The position numbers and the translations under genes are program-made. A stretch of 64,000 nucleotides of DNA from Escherichia coli. Lineage in GTDB: Bacteria > Pseudomonadota > Gammaproteobacteria > Enterobacterales > Enterobacteriaceae. Where the stretch lies: assembly GCF_045037415.1 (NCBI RefSeq), contig NZ_CP173438.1. One strand, given 5' to 3'. The notes beneath the pieces are model-generated. The model did not search any database. It saw nothing but the letters and a program-made list of their open reading frames with translations, and was not told the origin of the DNA. Numbering within the stretch: the first letter of the stretch is position 1; each line of letters opens with the position of its first letter. Shown piece after piece: positions 17,818 through 29,187 of this stretch.

Positions 17818-18666
17818 ATGGCGACATACCTTATTGGCGACGTTCATGGTTGTTACGATGAACTGATCGCATTGCTGCATAAAGTAGAATTTACCCCTGG
17901 GAAAGATACCCTCTGGCTGACGGGCGATCTGGTCGCGCGCGGCCCGGGTTCGCTGGATGTTCTGCGCTATGTGAAATCCTTAGGCGACAGCGTACGTCTG
18001 GTGCTGGGTAATCACGATCTGCATCTGCTGGCGGTATTTGCCGGGATCAGCCGCAATAAACCGAAAGATCGCCTGACACCGCTGCTGGAAGCGCCGGATG
18101 CCGACGAGCTGCTTAACTGGCTGCGTCGCCAGCCTTTGCTGCAAATCGACGAAGAGAAAAAGTTGGTGATGGCCCACGCCGGGATCACGCCGCAGTGGGA
18201 TCTGCAGACCGCCAAAGAGTGCGCGCGCGATGTAGAAGCGGTGCTGTCGAGTGACTCCTATCCCTTCTTCCTTGATGCCATGTACGGCGATATGCCAAAT
18301 AACTGGTCACCGGAATTGCGGGGGCTGGGAAGACTGCGTTTTATCACCAACGCCTTTACCCGTATGCGTTTTTGCTTCCCGAACGGTCAACTGGATATGT
18401 ACAGCAAAGAATCGCCGGAAGAGGCCCCTGCCCCACTGAAACCGTGGTTTGCGATTCCTGGCCCCGTCGCTGAAGAGTACAACATCGCCTTTGGTCACTG
18501 GGCATCGCTGGAAGGCAAAGGTACGCCGGAAGGTATTTACGCGCTGGATACCGGCTGCTGCTGGGGTGGTACATTAACCTGCCTGCGCTGGGAAGATAAA
18601 CAGTATTTTGTCCAGCCGTCGAACCGGCATAAGGATTTGAGTGAGGGAGAGGCGGTAGCGTCTTAA
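17818..18666 (+). CDS. apaH: Bis(5'-nucleosyl)-tetraphosphatase (symmetrical)
   Basis: 282-aa [19 protein letters not shown]...; matches ApaH, with a slightly different C-terminus from the K-12 protein as I recall it. Confidence 0.95.
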
Positions 18667-18692
18667 ATCCCGTCGAGCATAAAATCTAATGC

Positions 18693-18977
18693 TCATTTAA
18701 TCAACGTTCGGTGCGCGCTGGCATCGCAAAATTTCGTTCCCAGCGCGTTAACTGGAACAGTTGCAGTCTCATGCGTCATGAGCACATATTCTTTGCCGTC
18801 TATCAGTAAAAGGATTGGGTTAAGCCGTTCTGGTGGGCGAATACGGCTAAATCGTTCAATAGGTGTTAATGGAATAACGATACGGCGATTAATCTCACCA
18901 ATAATGTCGCTGGTAACATCAATAACAAAGGGAAACGCGGCGTTCCTGCCGCGACTGCGGTATACCGTAAATTGCAT
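18693..18977 (-). CDS. ccdB: CcdB-family toxin (DNA gyrase poison), chromosomal copy
   Basis: 94-aa ORF MQFTVYRSRGRNAAFPFVIDVTSDIIGEINRRIVIPL... resembles F-plasmid CcdB (MQFKVY...VDVQSDII...VIPL); sits 3 nt after the ccdA stop. Confidence 0.85.
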   Translation of the reverse strand: MQFTVYRSRGRNAAFPFVIDVTSDIIGEINRRIVIPLTPIERFSRIRPPERLNPILLLIDGKEYVLMTHETATVPVNALGTKFCDASAHRTLIK

Positions 18978-18979
18978 CG

Positions 18980-19213
18980 CTAGAAGCTCCGGTACTCATC
19001 AGAGAAACATCCGGTTTCATCAGCCAATTGATTTAACGCAGCGATAGCTTCTGCGTTCTCTTCACGCCAACGTGTTGCTGCATGTTTTTTAAGTTCAGCA
19101 TTGAGCGCAACCGTAAGGGTGGCGCTCATATTTAAGCCTGCATCACGAGCGCGATTGACTAACTCACGGTCGACGGTGACGGTCACACTTTGTGTGGTAC
19201 GTTTTGCAGTCAT
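18980..19213 (-). CDS. ccdA: CcdA-family antitoxin, chromosomal copy
   Basis: 77-aa ORF MTAKRTTQSVTVTVDRELVNRA...RWREENAEAIAALNQLADETGCFSDEYRSF resembles F CcdA (ITVTVD...RWKAENQEGM...F.DE.R); classic antitoxin-then-toxin order. Confidence 0.85.
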   Translation of the reverse strand: MTAKRTTQSVTVTVDRELVNRARDAGLNMSATLTVALNAELKKHAATRWREENAEAIAALNQLADETGCFSDEYRSF

Positions 19214-19298
19214 GATCTCGTGCTCCTGTACAATTTATACGTCTAGTATACACGGATATCTGCACGTATCAGTGATGCCGGAATTCTAATATACGAAA
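19214..19298 (-). promoter_or_regulatory. Putative ccd promoter / operator region
   Basis: Short palindromic elements (tgtacaatttatacgtctagtatacacgg) immediately upstream of ccdA; inferred from TA autoregulation. Confidence 0.35.
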
Positions 19299-21824
<2,526 letters not shown>

Positions 21825-21832
<8 letters not shown>

Positions 21833-22355
21833 GATGTGCCTCCTGCCATTCCAGCAGACGTTGCTTATAGTGCCGCGCCTGCCCTTCGAGGGTTTCGTCG
21901 TCACAAATAAAGGTGCAGTGCATGGCAAACGGTGGCAGCCAGTTCAGCCCGCAGTAGATTGCCGTCGCCTGTAGCGGCTGCGACAGCACATCAAAGCCCG
22001 GATGCGCACCAATCTCAAAATGGCTTTCCCCGCCGCCGGTCGTCACCGCCCACAGCAAATGTTTGCCGTGCAGCGCCGTGCCGCCGTGACCGTAAGCCCA
22101 GCCGTGCGAGAAAACTTTATCGATCCAAAGTTTAAGAAGCGGTGGAATGCTGTACCACTGCATCGGGTGCTGCCAGACGATCAGATCGGCACGAGACAGC
22201 GCCTCCTGTTCGGCGGCAATGTCGATATTGAAGTCAGGATAGAGTTGATAAAGAGAGCGAATTTCGACGCCTTCCAGCGTCCTTGCCTGTTCAAGCATCC
22301 GTTTATTCGCATGGGAATGATGCGGATATGGATGCGCATAAATTATAAGAATCAT
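21825..22355 (-). CDS. kefF: KefC ancillary flavoprotein / quinone oxidoreductase
   Basis: 176-aa [26 protein letters not shown]...; matches KefF. Confidence 0.95.
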
Positions 22356-22462
22356 AGGTAGCCCGCGTGATTACGCCTTTGTTTTCCCACAAAGTGTAGT
22401 CATATATTCACGCAGCTTATAGTCAATAATATTGATTCAGAAAAGAGAGAAATCTGAACAAA

Positions 22463-23794
22463 TTACCCCATTCTCTGCCCGCGGATCGTCATATTGCTGG
22501 TCTGCGCCAGTGACATCCCTCGAGTCTCCGGGGCAAACGCTACGGAAATCAACAAGCCAAATAGCGAGATACCCGCCCCCATTAGCATCGTGTTACTGAT
22601 ACCGTAATTATTGATAAAGATCGGCAGTGTCCAGGTCGATACAATAGTGCCAATACGGCTTAAGGACATAATCACGCCCACGGCAGAGGCGCGGATATCC
22701 GTCGGGAAGAGTTCATTAGGATAGAGCCACTGCAAATTACCCGGCCCGCCAGAGAAAAAGGCATACACCGCAAAGGCCATCACTACCAGCCAGATCCCCA
22801 TATCCGGGATCAGCCCCAAAACCGCCAGCGCCAGCGTCATCATGGCAAAGCTGCCAATCAACAATGGACGCCGTCCGGCAGTGTTTAGCCACAGCATCGG
22901 CGGAATACAGCCGAGCATAAAGAACAGGCTAATCACCACGTTCCCCAGTGCCGCGTTTTTGCCAACCCCCAATCCCAACAAACCAACGATTTGCGGGCCA
23001 AAGGTGTAAATGGCGAACATGGGGATCACCTGGCAGGTCCAGATAGCGGCAACAAACAGAACAAAAGGAAAATGGCGGCGATTAAACAGATCGCGAAAAC
23101 GGGTTTGCTGCGGCTGCTCTTCCTCGAAAGCCACCGGTTCGCCAAACAGTTTTATCATCATCTCTTCGCACTCTTTTACTCGCCCTTTGCGTAACAACCA
23201 GCGGGGAGATTCAGGCAGTTCGAATCGACCAATCAAAATCAACAAACAGGGAATCGCTGCGCTACCCAGCATCCAGCGCCAGCCGCCTTCCACATCATAA
23301 AGCCAATAGCCGACCAAATCGGCGCAGGTCGCGCCGACATACCACATCGCGGCAATAAAGCTGATGGAAAACGCCCGCTGACGGGTACTGGAGAACTCGG
23401 TGATCATTGAGGTGGCGATGGGATAATCCGCACCAATGACAATGCCGATAAGTACCCGCATCACCAACAGTTCGACGGGGGATGAGACAAACATCGTTGC
23501 CACCGATATCACGCCGATGGCGATGATATCAATGAGGAACATTTTGCGCCGTCCGACTTTATCGGAGATATAGCCAAACAGCGATGTGCCAACGAACAGC
23601 CCGGCGAGCGTTCCCGCGCCCAGCAAGCCAATCCAGTCAGCGTCCAGTTTCAGCGCCGGAGTCAGTTGCTCCAGCGCCACGCCAATCATTACCAGTACAT
23701 AACCATCCAGAAACGGACCACCGCTTCCCCACAGCAAAATGCGGCGGTGAATAGAGGAGAATTTAAGATCATCAAAGTTTCTGGACGGTTGCAT
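22463..23794 (-). CDS. yaaU: MFS-family transporter YaaU
   Basis: 443-aa multi-TM ORF; matches YaaU by position and sequence. Confidence 0.9.
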   Translation of the reverse strand: MQPSRNFDDLKFSSIHRRILLWGSGGPFLDGYVLVMIGVALEQLTPALKLDADWIGLLGAGTLAGLFVGTSLFGYISDKVGRRKMFLIDIIAIGVISVATMFVSSPVELLVMRVLIGIVIGADYPIATSMITEFSSTRQRAFSISFIAAMWYVGATCADLVGYWLYDVEGGWRWMLGSAAIPCLLILIGRFELPESPRWLLRKGRVKECEEMMIKLFGEPVAFEEEQPQQTRFRDLFNRRHFPFVLFVAAIWTCQVIPMFAIYTFGPQIVGLLGLGVGKNAALGNVVISLFFMLGCIPPMLWLNTAGRRPLLIGSFAMMTLALAVLGLIPDMGIWLVVMAFAVYAFFSGGPGNLQWLYPNELFPTDIRASAVGVIMSLSRIGTIVSTWTLPIFINNYGISNTMLMGAGISLFGLLISVAFAPETRGMSLAQTSNMTIRGQRMG

Positions 23795-23852
23795 GGGTTA
23801 TTCCTGTTTTTTTGCAATGAGAGTCAGTACGGCATTACGTATCAAACCAACA

Positions 23853-24140
23853 TCAGCCGTAACGGAACTCCACACCAAAGGTGCCGCGCGGGTATTCCCA
23901 CTGTTCCAGCGCCGACCCCAGCCCCAGAATGCGACAGGTGCCGCACTCCAGACATCCGGCGTAATCGAAGCGCACACTGCCGTCATCCCGCTTCTTGTAC
24001 AGACCTGCGGGGCACGCTTTCACCAGCAGCTCCAGGGCCTGTTTATCGGCATCGGCCTTCACAACAATGTGCGGATGCTCTTCATCGACATTGAATTTAT
24101 TGACGCCCAGTTTGACGTCCACATTGACGGGAGAAGTCAT
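23853..24140 (-). CDS. fixX: Ferredoxin-like protein FixX
   Basis: 95-aa ORF with Cys-rich ferredoxin motif (CLECGTC); 4-nt overlap with fixC. Confidence 0.93.
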   Translation of the reverse strand: MTSPVNVDVKLGVNKFNVDEEHPHIVVKADADKQALELLVKACPAGLYKKRDDGSVRFDYAGCLECGTCRILGLGSALEQWEYPRGTFGVEFRYG

Positions 24141-25423
24141 AAAACGGTCACTCCTTTCATGCCATCCTTGATCAGATTGATGAAGCCCACTTTCTTGCCG
24201 TGGCGGAGGATTTTCTTGCGCATCAGTTCCGGCGCACTGCCGTCAATGGTGAACAGGTCACGCGCCACGCCCACCGCCAGTTCCGGGTAGCCGTTAAACA
24301 TGCGTGGGTTATCAAGGAACGCCGGTAGTTTCTGGTACATGCGCATATCGCGCAGCGGGCCACTCTCAAGATGCTGACGATATTCCGCGAGTTTTTGCTT
24401 ACTGAAATCGTCGCTTTTCATCGCTGAAAGCACAGTTTTTGCTGCTGCTTCCCCGGCGGCAATCGCCAGATCCATACCGCGAATGGTAAAACCGAGGTTC
24501 ATACACATTCCGGCAGCATCACCGGCAATCAATACGCCGTCACCGACCAGCTCCGGCAGCATGTTGATGCCTGCTTCCGGCACTACGTGAGCGGAATATT
24601 CCACCAGCTTGCCGCCCGCGATCAGCGGTGCAACGGCCGGATGTTGTTTGAAATCTTCCAGCATTTGCGGCACCGATTTTTTTGCGTCATGCAGATGATG
24701 GAGACCACAAACCAGCCCCAGCGACAGGGTATTTTCATTGGTATAAAGGAAGCCACCGCCCATCAGGCCATCGGTGGGTGATCCCGCAAACAGGCAAGCC
24801 GCGCCCTGATTACCCTGCAACTGAAAACGGTCTTCAATAACCGACTTCGGTAACTCGATCAGTTCCTTCACGCCAACCGCCACATCCGTCGGTTTAACGC
24901 GTTTTGCCATCCCCAGCTTTTCGGCAAGGATGGAATTCACCCCATCAGCAAGGATCACCGTTTTCGCTTCAATCACATCGCCATCGGCTTCTACACCGAC
25001 GACTTTGCCATCGCGCTGTACGAGGTTATCGACGCGGATCCCGGTAATTAACTGCGCGCCCGCTTCTTCGGCCTGCTCCATCAGCCAGGCATCAAATTTA
25101 CTGCGCAAAACGGAGTAAGAACGCTGGGATGGAGAGGTTTCGTCGCCATTGCAGTAGTCCATAGTCATCGCTGACTTTTCCGTCATAAACGCAAGTTTTT
25201 CATGGGTGATCAGGCGTTCTACGGGGGCGGAGTCAGCGAAACCAGGAATAATGTGTTCCAGACTGTGGGCATAGAGACGCCCGCCAGTGACGTTCTTGGC
25301 ACCTGCGGAATTGCCTCGCTCGATAACTAACACTTGCGCACCTTCGCGGGCGAGCACCAGTGCGGCAACCGAACCGGCAAGCCCTGCACCGACGATGATG
25401 GCGTCAAAGATATCTTCGGACAT
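24137..25423 (-). CDS. fixC: Electron-transfer flavoprotein-quinone oxidoreductase FixC
   Basis: 428-aa ORF with N-terminal FAD-binding fold (DAIIVGAGLAGS); matches FixC. Confidence 0.95.
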   Translation of the reverse strand: MSEDIFDAIIVGAGLAGSVAALVLAREGAQVLVIERGNSAGAKNVTGGRLYAHSLEHIIPGFADSAPVERLITHEKLAFMTEKSAMTMDYCNGDETSPSQRSYSVLRSKFDAWLMEQAEEAGAQLITGIRVDNLVQRDGKVVGVEADGDVIEAKTVILADGVNSILAEKLGMAKRVKPTDVAVGVKELIELPKSVIEDRFQLQGNQGAACLFAGSPTDGLMGGGFLYTNENTLSLGLVCGLHHLHDAKKSVPQMLEDFKQHPAVAPLIAGGKLVEYSAHVVPEAGINMLPELVGDGVLIAGDAAGMCMNLGFTIRGMDLAIAAGEAAAKTVLSAMKSDDFSKQKLAEYRQHLESGPLRDMRMYQKLPAFLDNPRMFNGYPELAVGVARDLFTIDGSAPELMRKKILRHGKKVGFINLIKDGMKGVTVL

Positions 25424-25473
25424 AAGAGCTCCCTGTCAGCGGCAGGGCCGGAATGCAGCCCTGCCAGAGTGGA

Positions 25474-26415
25474 TCAACGCGCTAAAGCTGCGGTCAGTGC
25501 CGGAAGGATCTTCACGGCGTCGCCAACAATGCCGTAATCCGCGTACTGGAAGATCGGCGCATTTTTATCTTTGTTGATGGCGAAAATGGTTTGCGACGCA
25601 TTAGCGCCAACCATGTGCTGGATCTGCCCGGAGATCCCCACCGCCAGGTACAATTCAGGTTTCAGCATCAGGTTGGAGATACCGACATAGCGTTCGTGCT
25701 CCATCCATTTTTCGTTTTCCGCCACCGGACGAGAACAGGCCAACTCCGCACCTATCGCCTTACAAAGCTGTTCTGCCAGCGCAATGTTCTCTTTGCTGCC
25801 AATACCGCGACCGACGCTGACCACCAGGCGGGCTTTGTCGAGATCGACGCTGTTGCTCTGACGCGCCTGGGTTGCCGTGCGGGTAATCGCCACAGCCGGA
25901 GCCTGCCACTCCACGGTGTGCGTTTCGCCAGTGCGTGACGCGTCTGGCTGAGCCGCATCGAACGTGCCGCTGCTGATGGTCAGTACCGCATACGGCGTGG
26001 CAATGCGTTCTTCGCCAATCGCCAGACCGCCGTAAACCATGTGTTTCACTGTCGCTTTACCGTCCTGCACGCTAACAGCGCTGGCATCGTTAGACACCGC
26101 CGCGTTAAGGCGGTAACCCAGTTTCGCCGCCAGTAATTTGCCGCGACGGGTGTTTGGCAACAGCACCAGACCGTCTGCGCCGTGCTGGCGAATAGTGTCA
26201 GCCATGACACCGGCGTAATCTTCGATCATCCGCTCGTCTGGTTTGCCGCTTAATTTCCAGACATGATTAGCGCCGAGCTGGATTGCCTGTGCGCCGTCGG
26301 CATCATTGAGGACGAACGTGTTGATTTGATTAGCTAAAGCCTGCGCACCGTTCATCAGTTCCGGCAGACGAGAAGGGGTATCGCTGAATACCCAGACTTG
26401 AGAAAACGTGTTCAT
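25474..26415 (-). CDS. fixB: Electron-transfer flavoprotein alpha subunit homologue FixB
   Basis: 313-aa ORF; matches FixB. Confidence 0.95.
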
Positions 26416-26429
26416 AGCATCCCCTGTAA

Positions 26430-27200
26430 TTAAATGACTTTGCGAAGATTTTCAGCAAATGCGGCGATCTGTTCTTCGCCGTCGCCTTCAATCACGATGC
26501 GCTGACGCTCGCGCTGTTTCGGCGCGGCAACCTGTTGTTCTGACCAGGCTGCCTCTGCGTTAAAACCGATATCCGCCGCCGACCATACCTGGACTGGCTT
26601 TTTCGCCGCGCCGAGAATGGCTTTCATCGAAGGAATTTGTGGGGAGTTGATATCAGTGGAAACAGCAACAACCGCAGGCAGCGGAATGCTTAAGGTTTCT
26701 GTTTCATCTTCCAGTTCGCGCTCAACGGTGAGGGTATCTGCCGTCAGGGAGATAATTTTGCTGACGCCGTTAACTGCCGGAATATTAAGGATTTCGCCTA
26801 CCAGCAAACCAACCTGCTGGGCATAAAGGTCGGAAGAACCATCGCCACAGAGGATCAAATCAAAGCCTGCTTTCTGAGCGGCTGCAGCAAGTACGCTCGC
26901 CGTTTGTTGCGGCAGTGCCTGCTCGAACTGGTCATCAATCACCACAATCAGTTCATCCGGACCGCGCGATAGCACATCTTTACGCCCTTTGGCGTTGGTC
27001 AGGGCTTTACCGCCCACACTTAAGGCCGTCACCTGCGCCTCTGCTGCCTGTTGCTTTAGCTGGCAAGCCGCTTCAATAGCGTTGAGATCGTATTGGCTTA
27101 TTTTGGCATCGGCTTTGCTGAAGTCTAACGAACCATCAGCATTATTGACCGCAATATCCTGTTCATCAGGCACGCACTTATAGCAAGTAATAATCTTCAT
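26430..27200 (-). CDS. fixA: Electron-transfer flavoprotein beta subunit homologue FixA
   Basis: Internal Met [20 protein letters not shown]... gives the 256-aa FixA; track ORF is 21 codons longer. Confidence 0.93.
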
Positions 27201-27331
27201 TGCATCTCCAGAAATCATGAAGGAAACGTCGTTCATATCGGTGGTGTTAATTACAGATATCACGCCCTTTAATTTGGAAATAAAACTTTAATCACCAATA
27301 TTGAAAATGTCACACGCAGATAAATCCAACT

Positions 27332-27366
27332 TTCAATATTGTTAAGCTCCTCACCAATATTGAAAA
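27332..27366. promoter_or_regulatory. Inverted repeat TTTCAATATTG-N13-CAATATTGAAA, probable CaiF activator site
   Basis: Perfect 11-bp half-sites separated by 13 bp in the divergent cai/fix control region. Confidence 0.6.
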
Positions 27367-27388
27367 CATGGCGTAGCAAAAAGAAATT

Positions 27389-27423
27389 TTCAATATTGTT
27401 TTATGGATCACCAATATTGAAAG
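27389..27423. promoter_or_regulatory. Second inverted repeat TTTCAATATTG-N13-CAATATTGAAA, probable CaiF activator site
   Basis: Identical architecture to the site at 27332-27366; an additional orphan half-site lies at 27297-27307. Confidence 0.6.
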
Positions 27424-27517
27424 TCAGATGCTATTTTTTTACCCACAACAGAACATAACAAACTGATTAATAATCAAAATTAACAAAAAAATGCCCTCTA
27501 TTCACCCGAAACAAAAA

Positions 27518-27533
27518 TGTGACAACAATCACA
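27518..27533. promoter_or_regulatory. CRP binding site in caiT promoter
   Basis: TGTGA-caacaa-TCACA, a perfect match to the CRP half-site consensus, about 140 bp upstream of caiT. Confidence 0.65.
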
Positions 27534-27669
27534 GAATGCAGCTTATTGAATACCCATTATGAGTTAGCCATTAACGCGTCCACGAGGTTAATAATAATTA
27601 TATTAAATGTTAACAAAAATAAAACAAACGGGAACGCAAAATAAATATTCGTTTTCACAGTGGAATTAA

Positions 27670-29187
<1,518 letters not shown>

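Follow-up and report, generated by a model that had tools for sequence, protein, structure and literature searches.

The DNA between apaH and folA in the window (the whole 64,000-nucleotide stretch of Escherichia coli DNA analysed here) very probably holds a decayed ccdO157 islet in its ST131 form, with an intact, expressed antitoxin gene (ccdA), a toxin gene (ccdB) disabled by a nonsense mutation and no remaining addiction module. Both the element and the kind of defect are already known and the reading is consistent with Mine et al. 2009 and the Kim et al. 2021 preprint; current understanding is left unchanged by it. The locus is a good illustration from nature of the decay already documented for a chromosomal toxin-antitoxin (TA) islet, in which the toxin is lost first and the antitoxin kept, and it sits in the lineage for which a link between loss of CcdB and gyrase-based quinolone resistance has been proposed.

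The islet fills a spacer of 632 bp (18667-19298), flanked on the left by apaH on the plus strand (17818-18666; ORFs and RefSeq) and on the right by folA on the minus strand (19299-19778; 480 nt in RefSeq), which ends at 19299 and lies directly upstream of ccdAB on the same strand. In the list of open reading frames, ccdA (18980-19213, minus strand) encodes an intact antitoxin of 77 amino acids with its stop codon TAG at 18982-18980, and ccdB (18693-18977, minus strand) encodes a product cut to 94 amino acids by the nonsense codon. A GGAG Shine-Dalgarno sequence for ccdB (18987-18990, minus strand) can be read within the 3' end of ccdA, and the ccdA stop is separated from the ccdB ATG by a 2-nt gap (18978-18979). 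The preliminary description had listed two small overlapping minus-strand ORFs of 77 and 94 codons; the ORFs, their positions and their lengths stand, but they do not overlap, since ccdA ends at 18980 and the ATG of ccdB begins at 18977.

The corresponding spacer of a K-12 derivative is 77 bp long and is largely taken up by a REP hairpin (predicted energy -27 kcal/mol), in keeping with the short, REP-containing folA-apaH spacer described for K-12 (PMC7232551; PMC7167474). The earlier estimate of about 630 bp against less than 100 bp in K-12 was therefore close. Comparison of the junctions placed the islet at the same folA-apaH site in O157:H7 and confirmed its absence from K-12, so that ccdA-ccdB takes the place of the K-12 REP spacer. 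A 6-nt indel just before the apaH stop (about 18641-18666) makes ApaH 282 amino acids long in ccd-positive strains, as in the window, against 280 in K-12. The stop of full-length ccdB overlaps that of apaH (18663-18666), so that the two convergent genes share their termini with no hairpin between them, where K-12 has the REP hairpin. An Rfam scan of 18400-19500 at E-values up to 1 matched no family, indicating that no known sRNA or riboswitch lies there, and neither CcdA nor CcdB was matched by the defence-system models of PADLOC.

It is clear that both products belong to the expected families. CcdA matches Pfam PF07362 over profile positions 2-71 of 71 (E = 1.3e-26; 93.1 bits against a cut-off of 22.4), a full-length match that takes in the N-terminal RHH and the C-terminal toxin-binding region, and a PDB sequence search aligned it to residues 3-70 of the F CcdA structure 2ADL. 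CcdB scores well above the curated cut-off of PF01845 (E = 4.3e-27; 94.8 bits against 28.6) but only over profile positions 1-92 of 101; the complete domain, with its C-terminal helix and the terminal residues that contact GyrA, is not present. Similarity to both families is thus far beyond chance, as the original assignment required. The CcdB/MazF-like fold was recovered with the full-length sister allele (99% identical) rather than with the 94-amino-acid product. An AF2 model of this sister CcdB had a mean pLDDT of 87 and a pTM of 0.81, and Foldseek gave TM scores of 0.86-0.90 to the CcdB:GyrA14 complexes 4ELZ and 1X75.

The F/pO157 ccdAB system (CcdA 72 and CcdB 101 amino acids) has the same two-gene layout, with a junction gap of 1 nt there and 2 nt here. 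It also shares the folds (at the TM scores just given), an RHH antitoxin with a disordered toxin-binding tail, and upstream hexamers of the GTATAC type. However, identity to the F/pO157 proteins is only 36% for CcdB and 31% for CcdA, and the F equivalog cut-offs of NCBIfam are not reached (CcdB 51.8 against 147 for NF010262; CcdA 38.6 against 100 for NF010264). Unlike F ccdAB, the window locus is chromosomal and has no role in plasmid maintenance. Among solved structures, the best sequence match (E = 6.5e-14) is the chromosomal CcdB of Vibrio fischeri (PDB 2KMT, 3JRZ and 4ELZ), which also gives the best structural match (TM 0.89); it is about 35% identical and, in contrast to the window product, is a full-length, active gyrase poison.

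A far closer relative is ccdO157 of O157:H7 (Wilbaux et al. 2007; Mine et al. 2009), which is alike in site, gene order and strand. The DNA is 98.1% identical over 851 bp, CcdA is 100% and CcdB 97% identical (the latter over 94 amino acids), and the leader is nearly identical. The preliminary description was thus right in recognizing a chromosomal ccdO157-type locus between apaH and folA. Where it erred was in treating the pair as an intact TA module with a 94-amino-acid toxin, as the native length is 104 amino acids and the window gene stops at Gly95. The O157:H7 toxin has 104 residues and is reported to be active; the window ccdB differs from it by Gly95-to-stop and V59I. With this nonsense codon the locus would no longer encode a functional ccdO157 pair and appears to fall into the 'inactive toxin, intact antitoxin' class described for E. 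coli.

Alignment shows the premature TGA at codon 95 of ccdB (18693-18695, minus strand), where the plus strand has A at 18695 and intact alleles have C (GGA, Gly). This C-to-A change is the sole difference at codon 95 from O157:H7, Nissle, LH85-a and SE15 and in a comparison of 12 loci; the second change in ccdB, V59I, lies at 18803. In-frame translation beyond the TGA reveals an untranslated remnant (18663-18692, minus strand) comprising codons 96-104 (ALDFMLDGI) and the original TAA, which overlaps the apaH stop. The window ORF and the remnant together are equivalent to the span annotated as CcdB (104 amino acids, 315 nt) in O157:H7, Nissle 1917 and SE15. The same length is kept well outside E. 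coli: among the matches listed at 53-74% identity, from Klebsiella, Salmonella, Xenorhabdus, Dickeya, Yersinia, Morganella and others, 32 of 35 homologues have exactly 104 amino acids.

The missing tail is not a dispensable extension. In an alignment of 37 CcdB sequences, the motif (G/A)A(I/L)DF(L/M)xDG(I/V) is among the best-conserved segments, with G103 invariant and A96, D98, F99 and D102 each at least 90% conserved. Residues 87-102 form the sole long helix of the modelled full-length protein, which a stop at codon 95 cuts in half. The lost decapeptide aligns to N92-I101 of F/pO157 CcdB. GyrA is contacted by C-terminal residues of CcdB (PMC3460896), and in F CcdB the substitutions N95L/R, W99C and G100A abolish gyrase binding while expression and CcdA binding are kept (bioRxiv 10.1101/2022.05.18.492574). 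As the decapeptide includes the counterparts of N95, W99 and G100, loss of toxicity is strongly suggested and the 94-amino-acid CcdB is most likely non-toxic. The family tail ends in DG[IV] (DGI in the window remnant) and the F tail in WGI, with Asp in place of F Trp99, so that we infer function across this difference when F mutational data are carried over to CcdB of the ccdO157 type; the same caveat on the Trp99 data was raised in PMC7232551.

The 85-nt leader between folA and ccdA (19214-19298, minus strand) contains the putative ccd promoter/operator and, 9 nt before the ccdA ATG, a putative ribosome-binding site, AGGAG (19227-19223). A consensus scan placed a sigma-70-like promoter at 19245-19272 on the minus strand, with a -35 of CTGATA (19272-19267), a 16-nt spacer and a -10 of TATACT (19250-19245). 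It was the single match in 1 kb, where 1.4 are expected by chance, and so it is position, not statistics, that speaks for it. As a scan found no terminator-like site between folA and ccdA, read-through from folA is likely. Only 4 of the 85 leader sites vary among the ccd-positive strains compared (12 loci).

A palindrome scan of the leader found a perfect GTATAC (19246-19251) overlapping the -10, and there are two copies with one mismatch each (GTATAA, 19240-19235; GTATAT, 19294-19289). The centre of the F operator likewise has one perfect and two imperfect GTATAC palindromes, and F CcdA binds single sites weakly, CcdB dimers bridging the CcdA dimers into a repressing chain (PMC5389731). It is plausible that the GTATAC-type hexamers serve as the ccd operator, the resemblance to F being suggestive. 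Only 0.09% of 85-nt segments across the 64 kb reach three GTATAC-like hexamers, but shuffling this AT-rich leader with dinucleotides preserved gives a P of about 0.09. An 85-bp upstream region with short palindromes had been put forward as an autoregulatory operator; its length and the palindromes (TGTACA, GTATAC, GATATC and GAATTC) were verified, but their number is not significantly above chance, with four hexamer palindromes observed and 2.3 expected (P = 0.19; dinucleotide shuffles of the leader). A plasmid homologue with 47% identity has CACGTG repeats instead of the GTATAC type. In LH85-a, EC21Z-144, 7CC and YL3, a T-to-A change at 19249 (plus-strand base) breaks the perfect GTATAC and turns the putative -10 from TATACT into TTTACT; in three of the four strains of this clade ccdB is dead as well, through a frameshift or an internal stop.

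These features can be assembled into a simple course of decay. In the ancestral form, ccdA and ccdB would have been co-transcribed from the leader promoter and probably also by read-through from folA. The 104-amino-acid CcdB would have poisoned DNA gyrase, and CcdA would have bound and neutralised it through its disordered C-terminal half. The C-to-A change at 18695, making Gly95 a TGA, would then yield a product without its last ten residues and the second half of its only long helix, leaving CcdA without a dangerous partner and the locus in the neutral decay documented for the ccdO157 islet. In this scheme we infer the loss of toxicity, the assignment of promoter and operator and the fate of the shortened product. 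It is slightly more probable that the 94-amino-acid CcdB is unstable than that it persists as a CcdA-binding co-repressor, and ccdA would be only weakly repressed if it is unstable, because F CcdA alone binds its operator poorly. Low-level read-through of the UGA could in principle still give traces of full-length CcdB.

Persistence of the shortened protein would allow a different role, that of a non-toxic CcdA partner and co-repressor in a regulated, antitoxin-only cassette, possibly guarding against incoming toxins of the ccdO157 type. The residues of F CcdB that contact CcdA (Y8, S12, R13, P35, L42, V46, M64, T66 and A69; bioRxiv 10.1101/2022.05.18.492574) all have their counterparts upstream of the stop at codon 95. 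C-terminal mutants of F CcdB keep CcdA binding, F CcdA alone is a poor repressor that needs the CcdB bridge (PMC5389731), and the CcdA of this islet is extremely conserved. However, loss of half the helix, including the hydrophobic residues corresponding to F99, M100 and L101, would probably destabilise the fold, and there is little to protect against because toxins of the ccdO157 type are all but missing from true plasmids. When 72,556 plasmids were searched with tblastn for a ccdO157-type copy, only one match at 96% came up, the next best being 45% identical. The 96% match (CP054241.1) is an 834-kb E. coli 'plasmid' record that also carries apaH beside its ccdO157-type ccdB, and most likely represents a piece of chromosome or a wrongly assigned replicon, not plasmid-borne ccdO157. 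A plasmid origin of the ccdO157 type, which was also considered, found no support in this search, as the sole close match is probably chromosomal DNA.

Nor would such a cassette be expected to counter the F toxin. Neutralisation works one way only: CcdA-F acts on CcdB-O157, but CcdA-O157 has no such effect on CcdB-F (PMC3460896; PMC10305079). In the ST131 strain EC958 the plasmid ccdA is indispensable and protected from transposon insertion (PMC4398462), as expected if the chromosomal antitoxin cannot replace it. Taken together, the antitoxin-only role is possible but doubtful. The same evidence weakens the suggestion in the preliminary description that the locus is relevant to cross-talk with plasmid ccd; little of this can remain with the chromosomal toxin truncated.

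Decay of the toxin gene alone fits the pattern of variation across E. coli. Thirteen of the 14 annotated E. coli loci compared share one CcdA protein, WP_000125566.1, while ccdB occurs in at least nine states among the compared loci, including a 13-nt deletion, a +1 frameshift and another internal stop. In the 12 aligned loci, 2 of 234 sites vary in ccdA against 18 of 315 in ccdB, in addition to the 13-nt deletion (Fisher P = 0.002). Further Escherichia CcdB variants in the protein database range from 63 to 111 amino acids and reflect independent nonsense, frameshift and in-frame deletion events. Mine et al. 2009 reportedly found ccdB-O157 to evolve neutrally. About 30% of ccdO157 toxins are defective and the chromosomal toxin is under no selection to keep it, according to PMC7280312, which cites Mine et al. 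2009. A 'degenerative process' of ccdO157 (PMC2654758) and defective ccdO157 genes in some strains (PMC3184786) have also been described.

The particular allele in the window can be assigned to a lineage. With an 851-bp query, 2,021 of 5,426 complete E. coli genomes (37%) were seen to carry the islet between apaH and folA, the others having the short junction. By contrast, the exact 61-mer centred on the TGA occurs in 412 complete genomes and its counterpart with at least one mismatch in 1,612. The 94-amino-acid CcdB corresponds to RefSeq WP_001160964.1, found in SK1144 and in the ST131 strain 4993, and over 22 kb spanning the locus the window matches the ST131 references EC958, JJ1886 and JJ1887 at 100% identity. 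SE15, which we take to be ST131 clade A, has C at 18695 and an intact 104-amino-acid CcdB, with CcdA, ApaH, FolA and KefC proteins identical to those of the window. The 3.7 kb surrounding the locus contain six differences between the window and SE15; two are protein-changing substitutions in ccdB, and ccdA, the leader and folA are free of differences.

Judged from these genomes, the TGA allele is the ST131 allele, and its presence in other ST131 strains with an intact gene in SE15 indicates that the stop arose, or was imported, within ST131. It was suggested earlier that the islet marks the strain background; the islet itself does so only loosely, being present in 37% of complete genomes, and the TGA allele does so better. 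The TGA at 18695 may serve as a simple lineage marker, since 412 of the 5,426 complete genomes carry it, the ST131 references among them, and SE15 does not.

The position of the allele in ST131 raises the question of selection. Among 352 ExPEC genomes, Kim et al. described a CcdB cluster as 'partially truncated, 95 amino acids' and found that CcdB truncation arose repeatedly and is associated with GyrA-S83X (bioRxiv 10.1101/2021.09.24.461737). Their 'cluster 2, 95 amino acids' resembles the window allele in its moderate C-terminal truncation and in its lineages with QRDR mutations. The preprint gives lengths only and no allele sequence; from length and lineage, the window allele almost certainly belongs to this cluster, counted with the stop position. 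It has been proposed on this basis that full-length chromosomal CcdB is incompatible with the gyrA/parC mutations conferring quinolone resistance, so that truncation would have been positively selected as a permissive step in fluoroquinolone-resistant ST131. If true, the Gly95-stop allele helped the fluoroquinolone-resistant pandemic clade to emerge, although this would be confirmation of the idea in the preprint and not a discovery.

Support for such selection comes from the preprint itself, in which GyrA-S83X is much more frequent in sequence types whose CcdB is truncated than in those with the full-length protein, and moderate (95-amino-acid) truncation has a positive model coefficient. In addition, EC958, identical to the window over 22 kb, has gyrA S83L/D87N and multiple parC changes. 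The clade A strain SE15 retains an intact ccdB, and two of the six differences between it and the window fall in ccdB and change the protein. However, phylogeny confounds the link to GyrA-S83X, a point made in the preprint itself, two differences out of six is not significant, and the chromosomal toxin is considered not to be under selection (PMC7280312). The SE15 result fits neutral and selected loss alike. Positive selection for the truncation is regarded as unlikely.

It is far less probable still that the pair remains an intact, functional TA module in which the 94-amino-acid CcdB continues to poison gyrase and has to be kept under control by CcdA. Both ORFs are open and tightly linked with Shine-Dalgarno sequences, the Pfam score of CcdB is high, RefSeq attaches no pseudogene flag, and the counterparts of the N-terminal gyrase contacts I24 and I25 of F are kept. 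Against this, the stop removes the conserved decapeptide together with half of the C-terminal helix, and in F one substitution at any of three equivalent positions is enough to abolish gyrase binding. Nearly all of the distant homologues listed keep exactly 104 amino acids, and ccdO157 variants of this kind are counted as defective in published surveys (PMC7280312; bioRxiv 2021.09.24.461737). A sequencing or assembly error behind the stop codon, for which nothing speaks beyond its being a single-base difference, can be dismissed with near certainty and was rejected because 412 independent complete genomes, EC958, JJ1886 and SK1144 among them, contain the identical 61-mer.

A decayed islet with a probably dead toxin is easily overlooked in automated annotation. 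RefSeq (PGAP) records the 94-amino-acid allele as an ordinary 'CcdB family protein' CDS, and records frameshifted or internally stopped ccdB alleles as pseudogenes. Surveys of TA presence or absence would accordingly count ST131 as having a functional chromosomal ccd, as pipelines label the 94-amino-acid ORF an ordinary CcdB.

Within the first 15 codons of ccdB there is a terminator-like hairpin (18936-18953, minus strand), with the stem CGCGGC-loop-GCCGCG followed by TTTCCCTTTG, which might lower expression of ccdB relative to ccdA. The hairpin is not strictly conserved, since its stem is mismatched in the O157:H7 allele.

Synonymous diversity (piS) was compared between the islet (18663-19298) and its flanks (18467-18662 and 19299-19375) among eight non-frameshifted alleles. 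In this small sample it was 0.005 for ccdA and 0.032 for ccdB, against 0.15-0.17 in the adjacent ends of apaH and folA. From its low diversity, the islet looks much younger than the backgrounds in which it is found, or may have spread across them by recombination. Further to the right, the 8 kb that begin at kefC (20828-29000) hold 66 differences between the window and SE15, compared with six in the 3.7 kb of apaH-ccd-folA, a hint that a recombination boundary between ST131 clades may lie near kefC.
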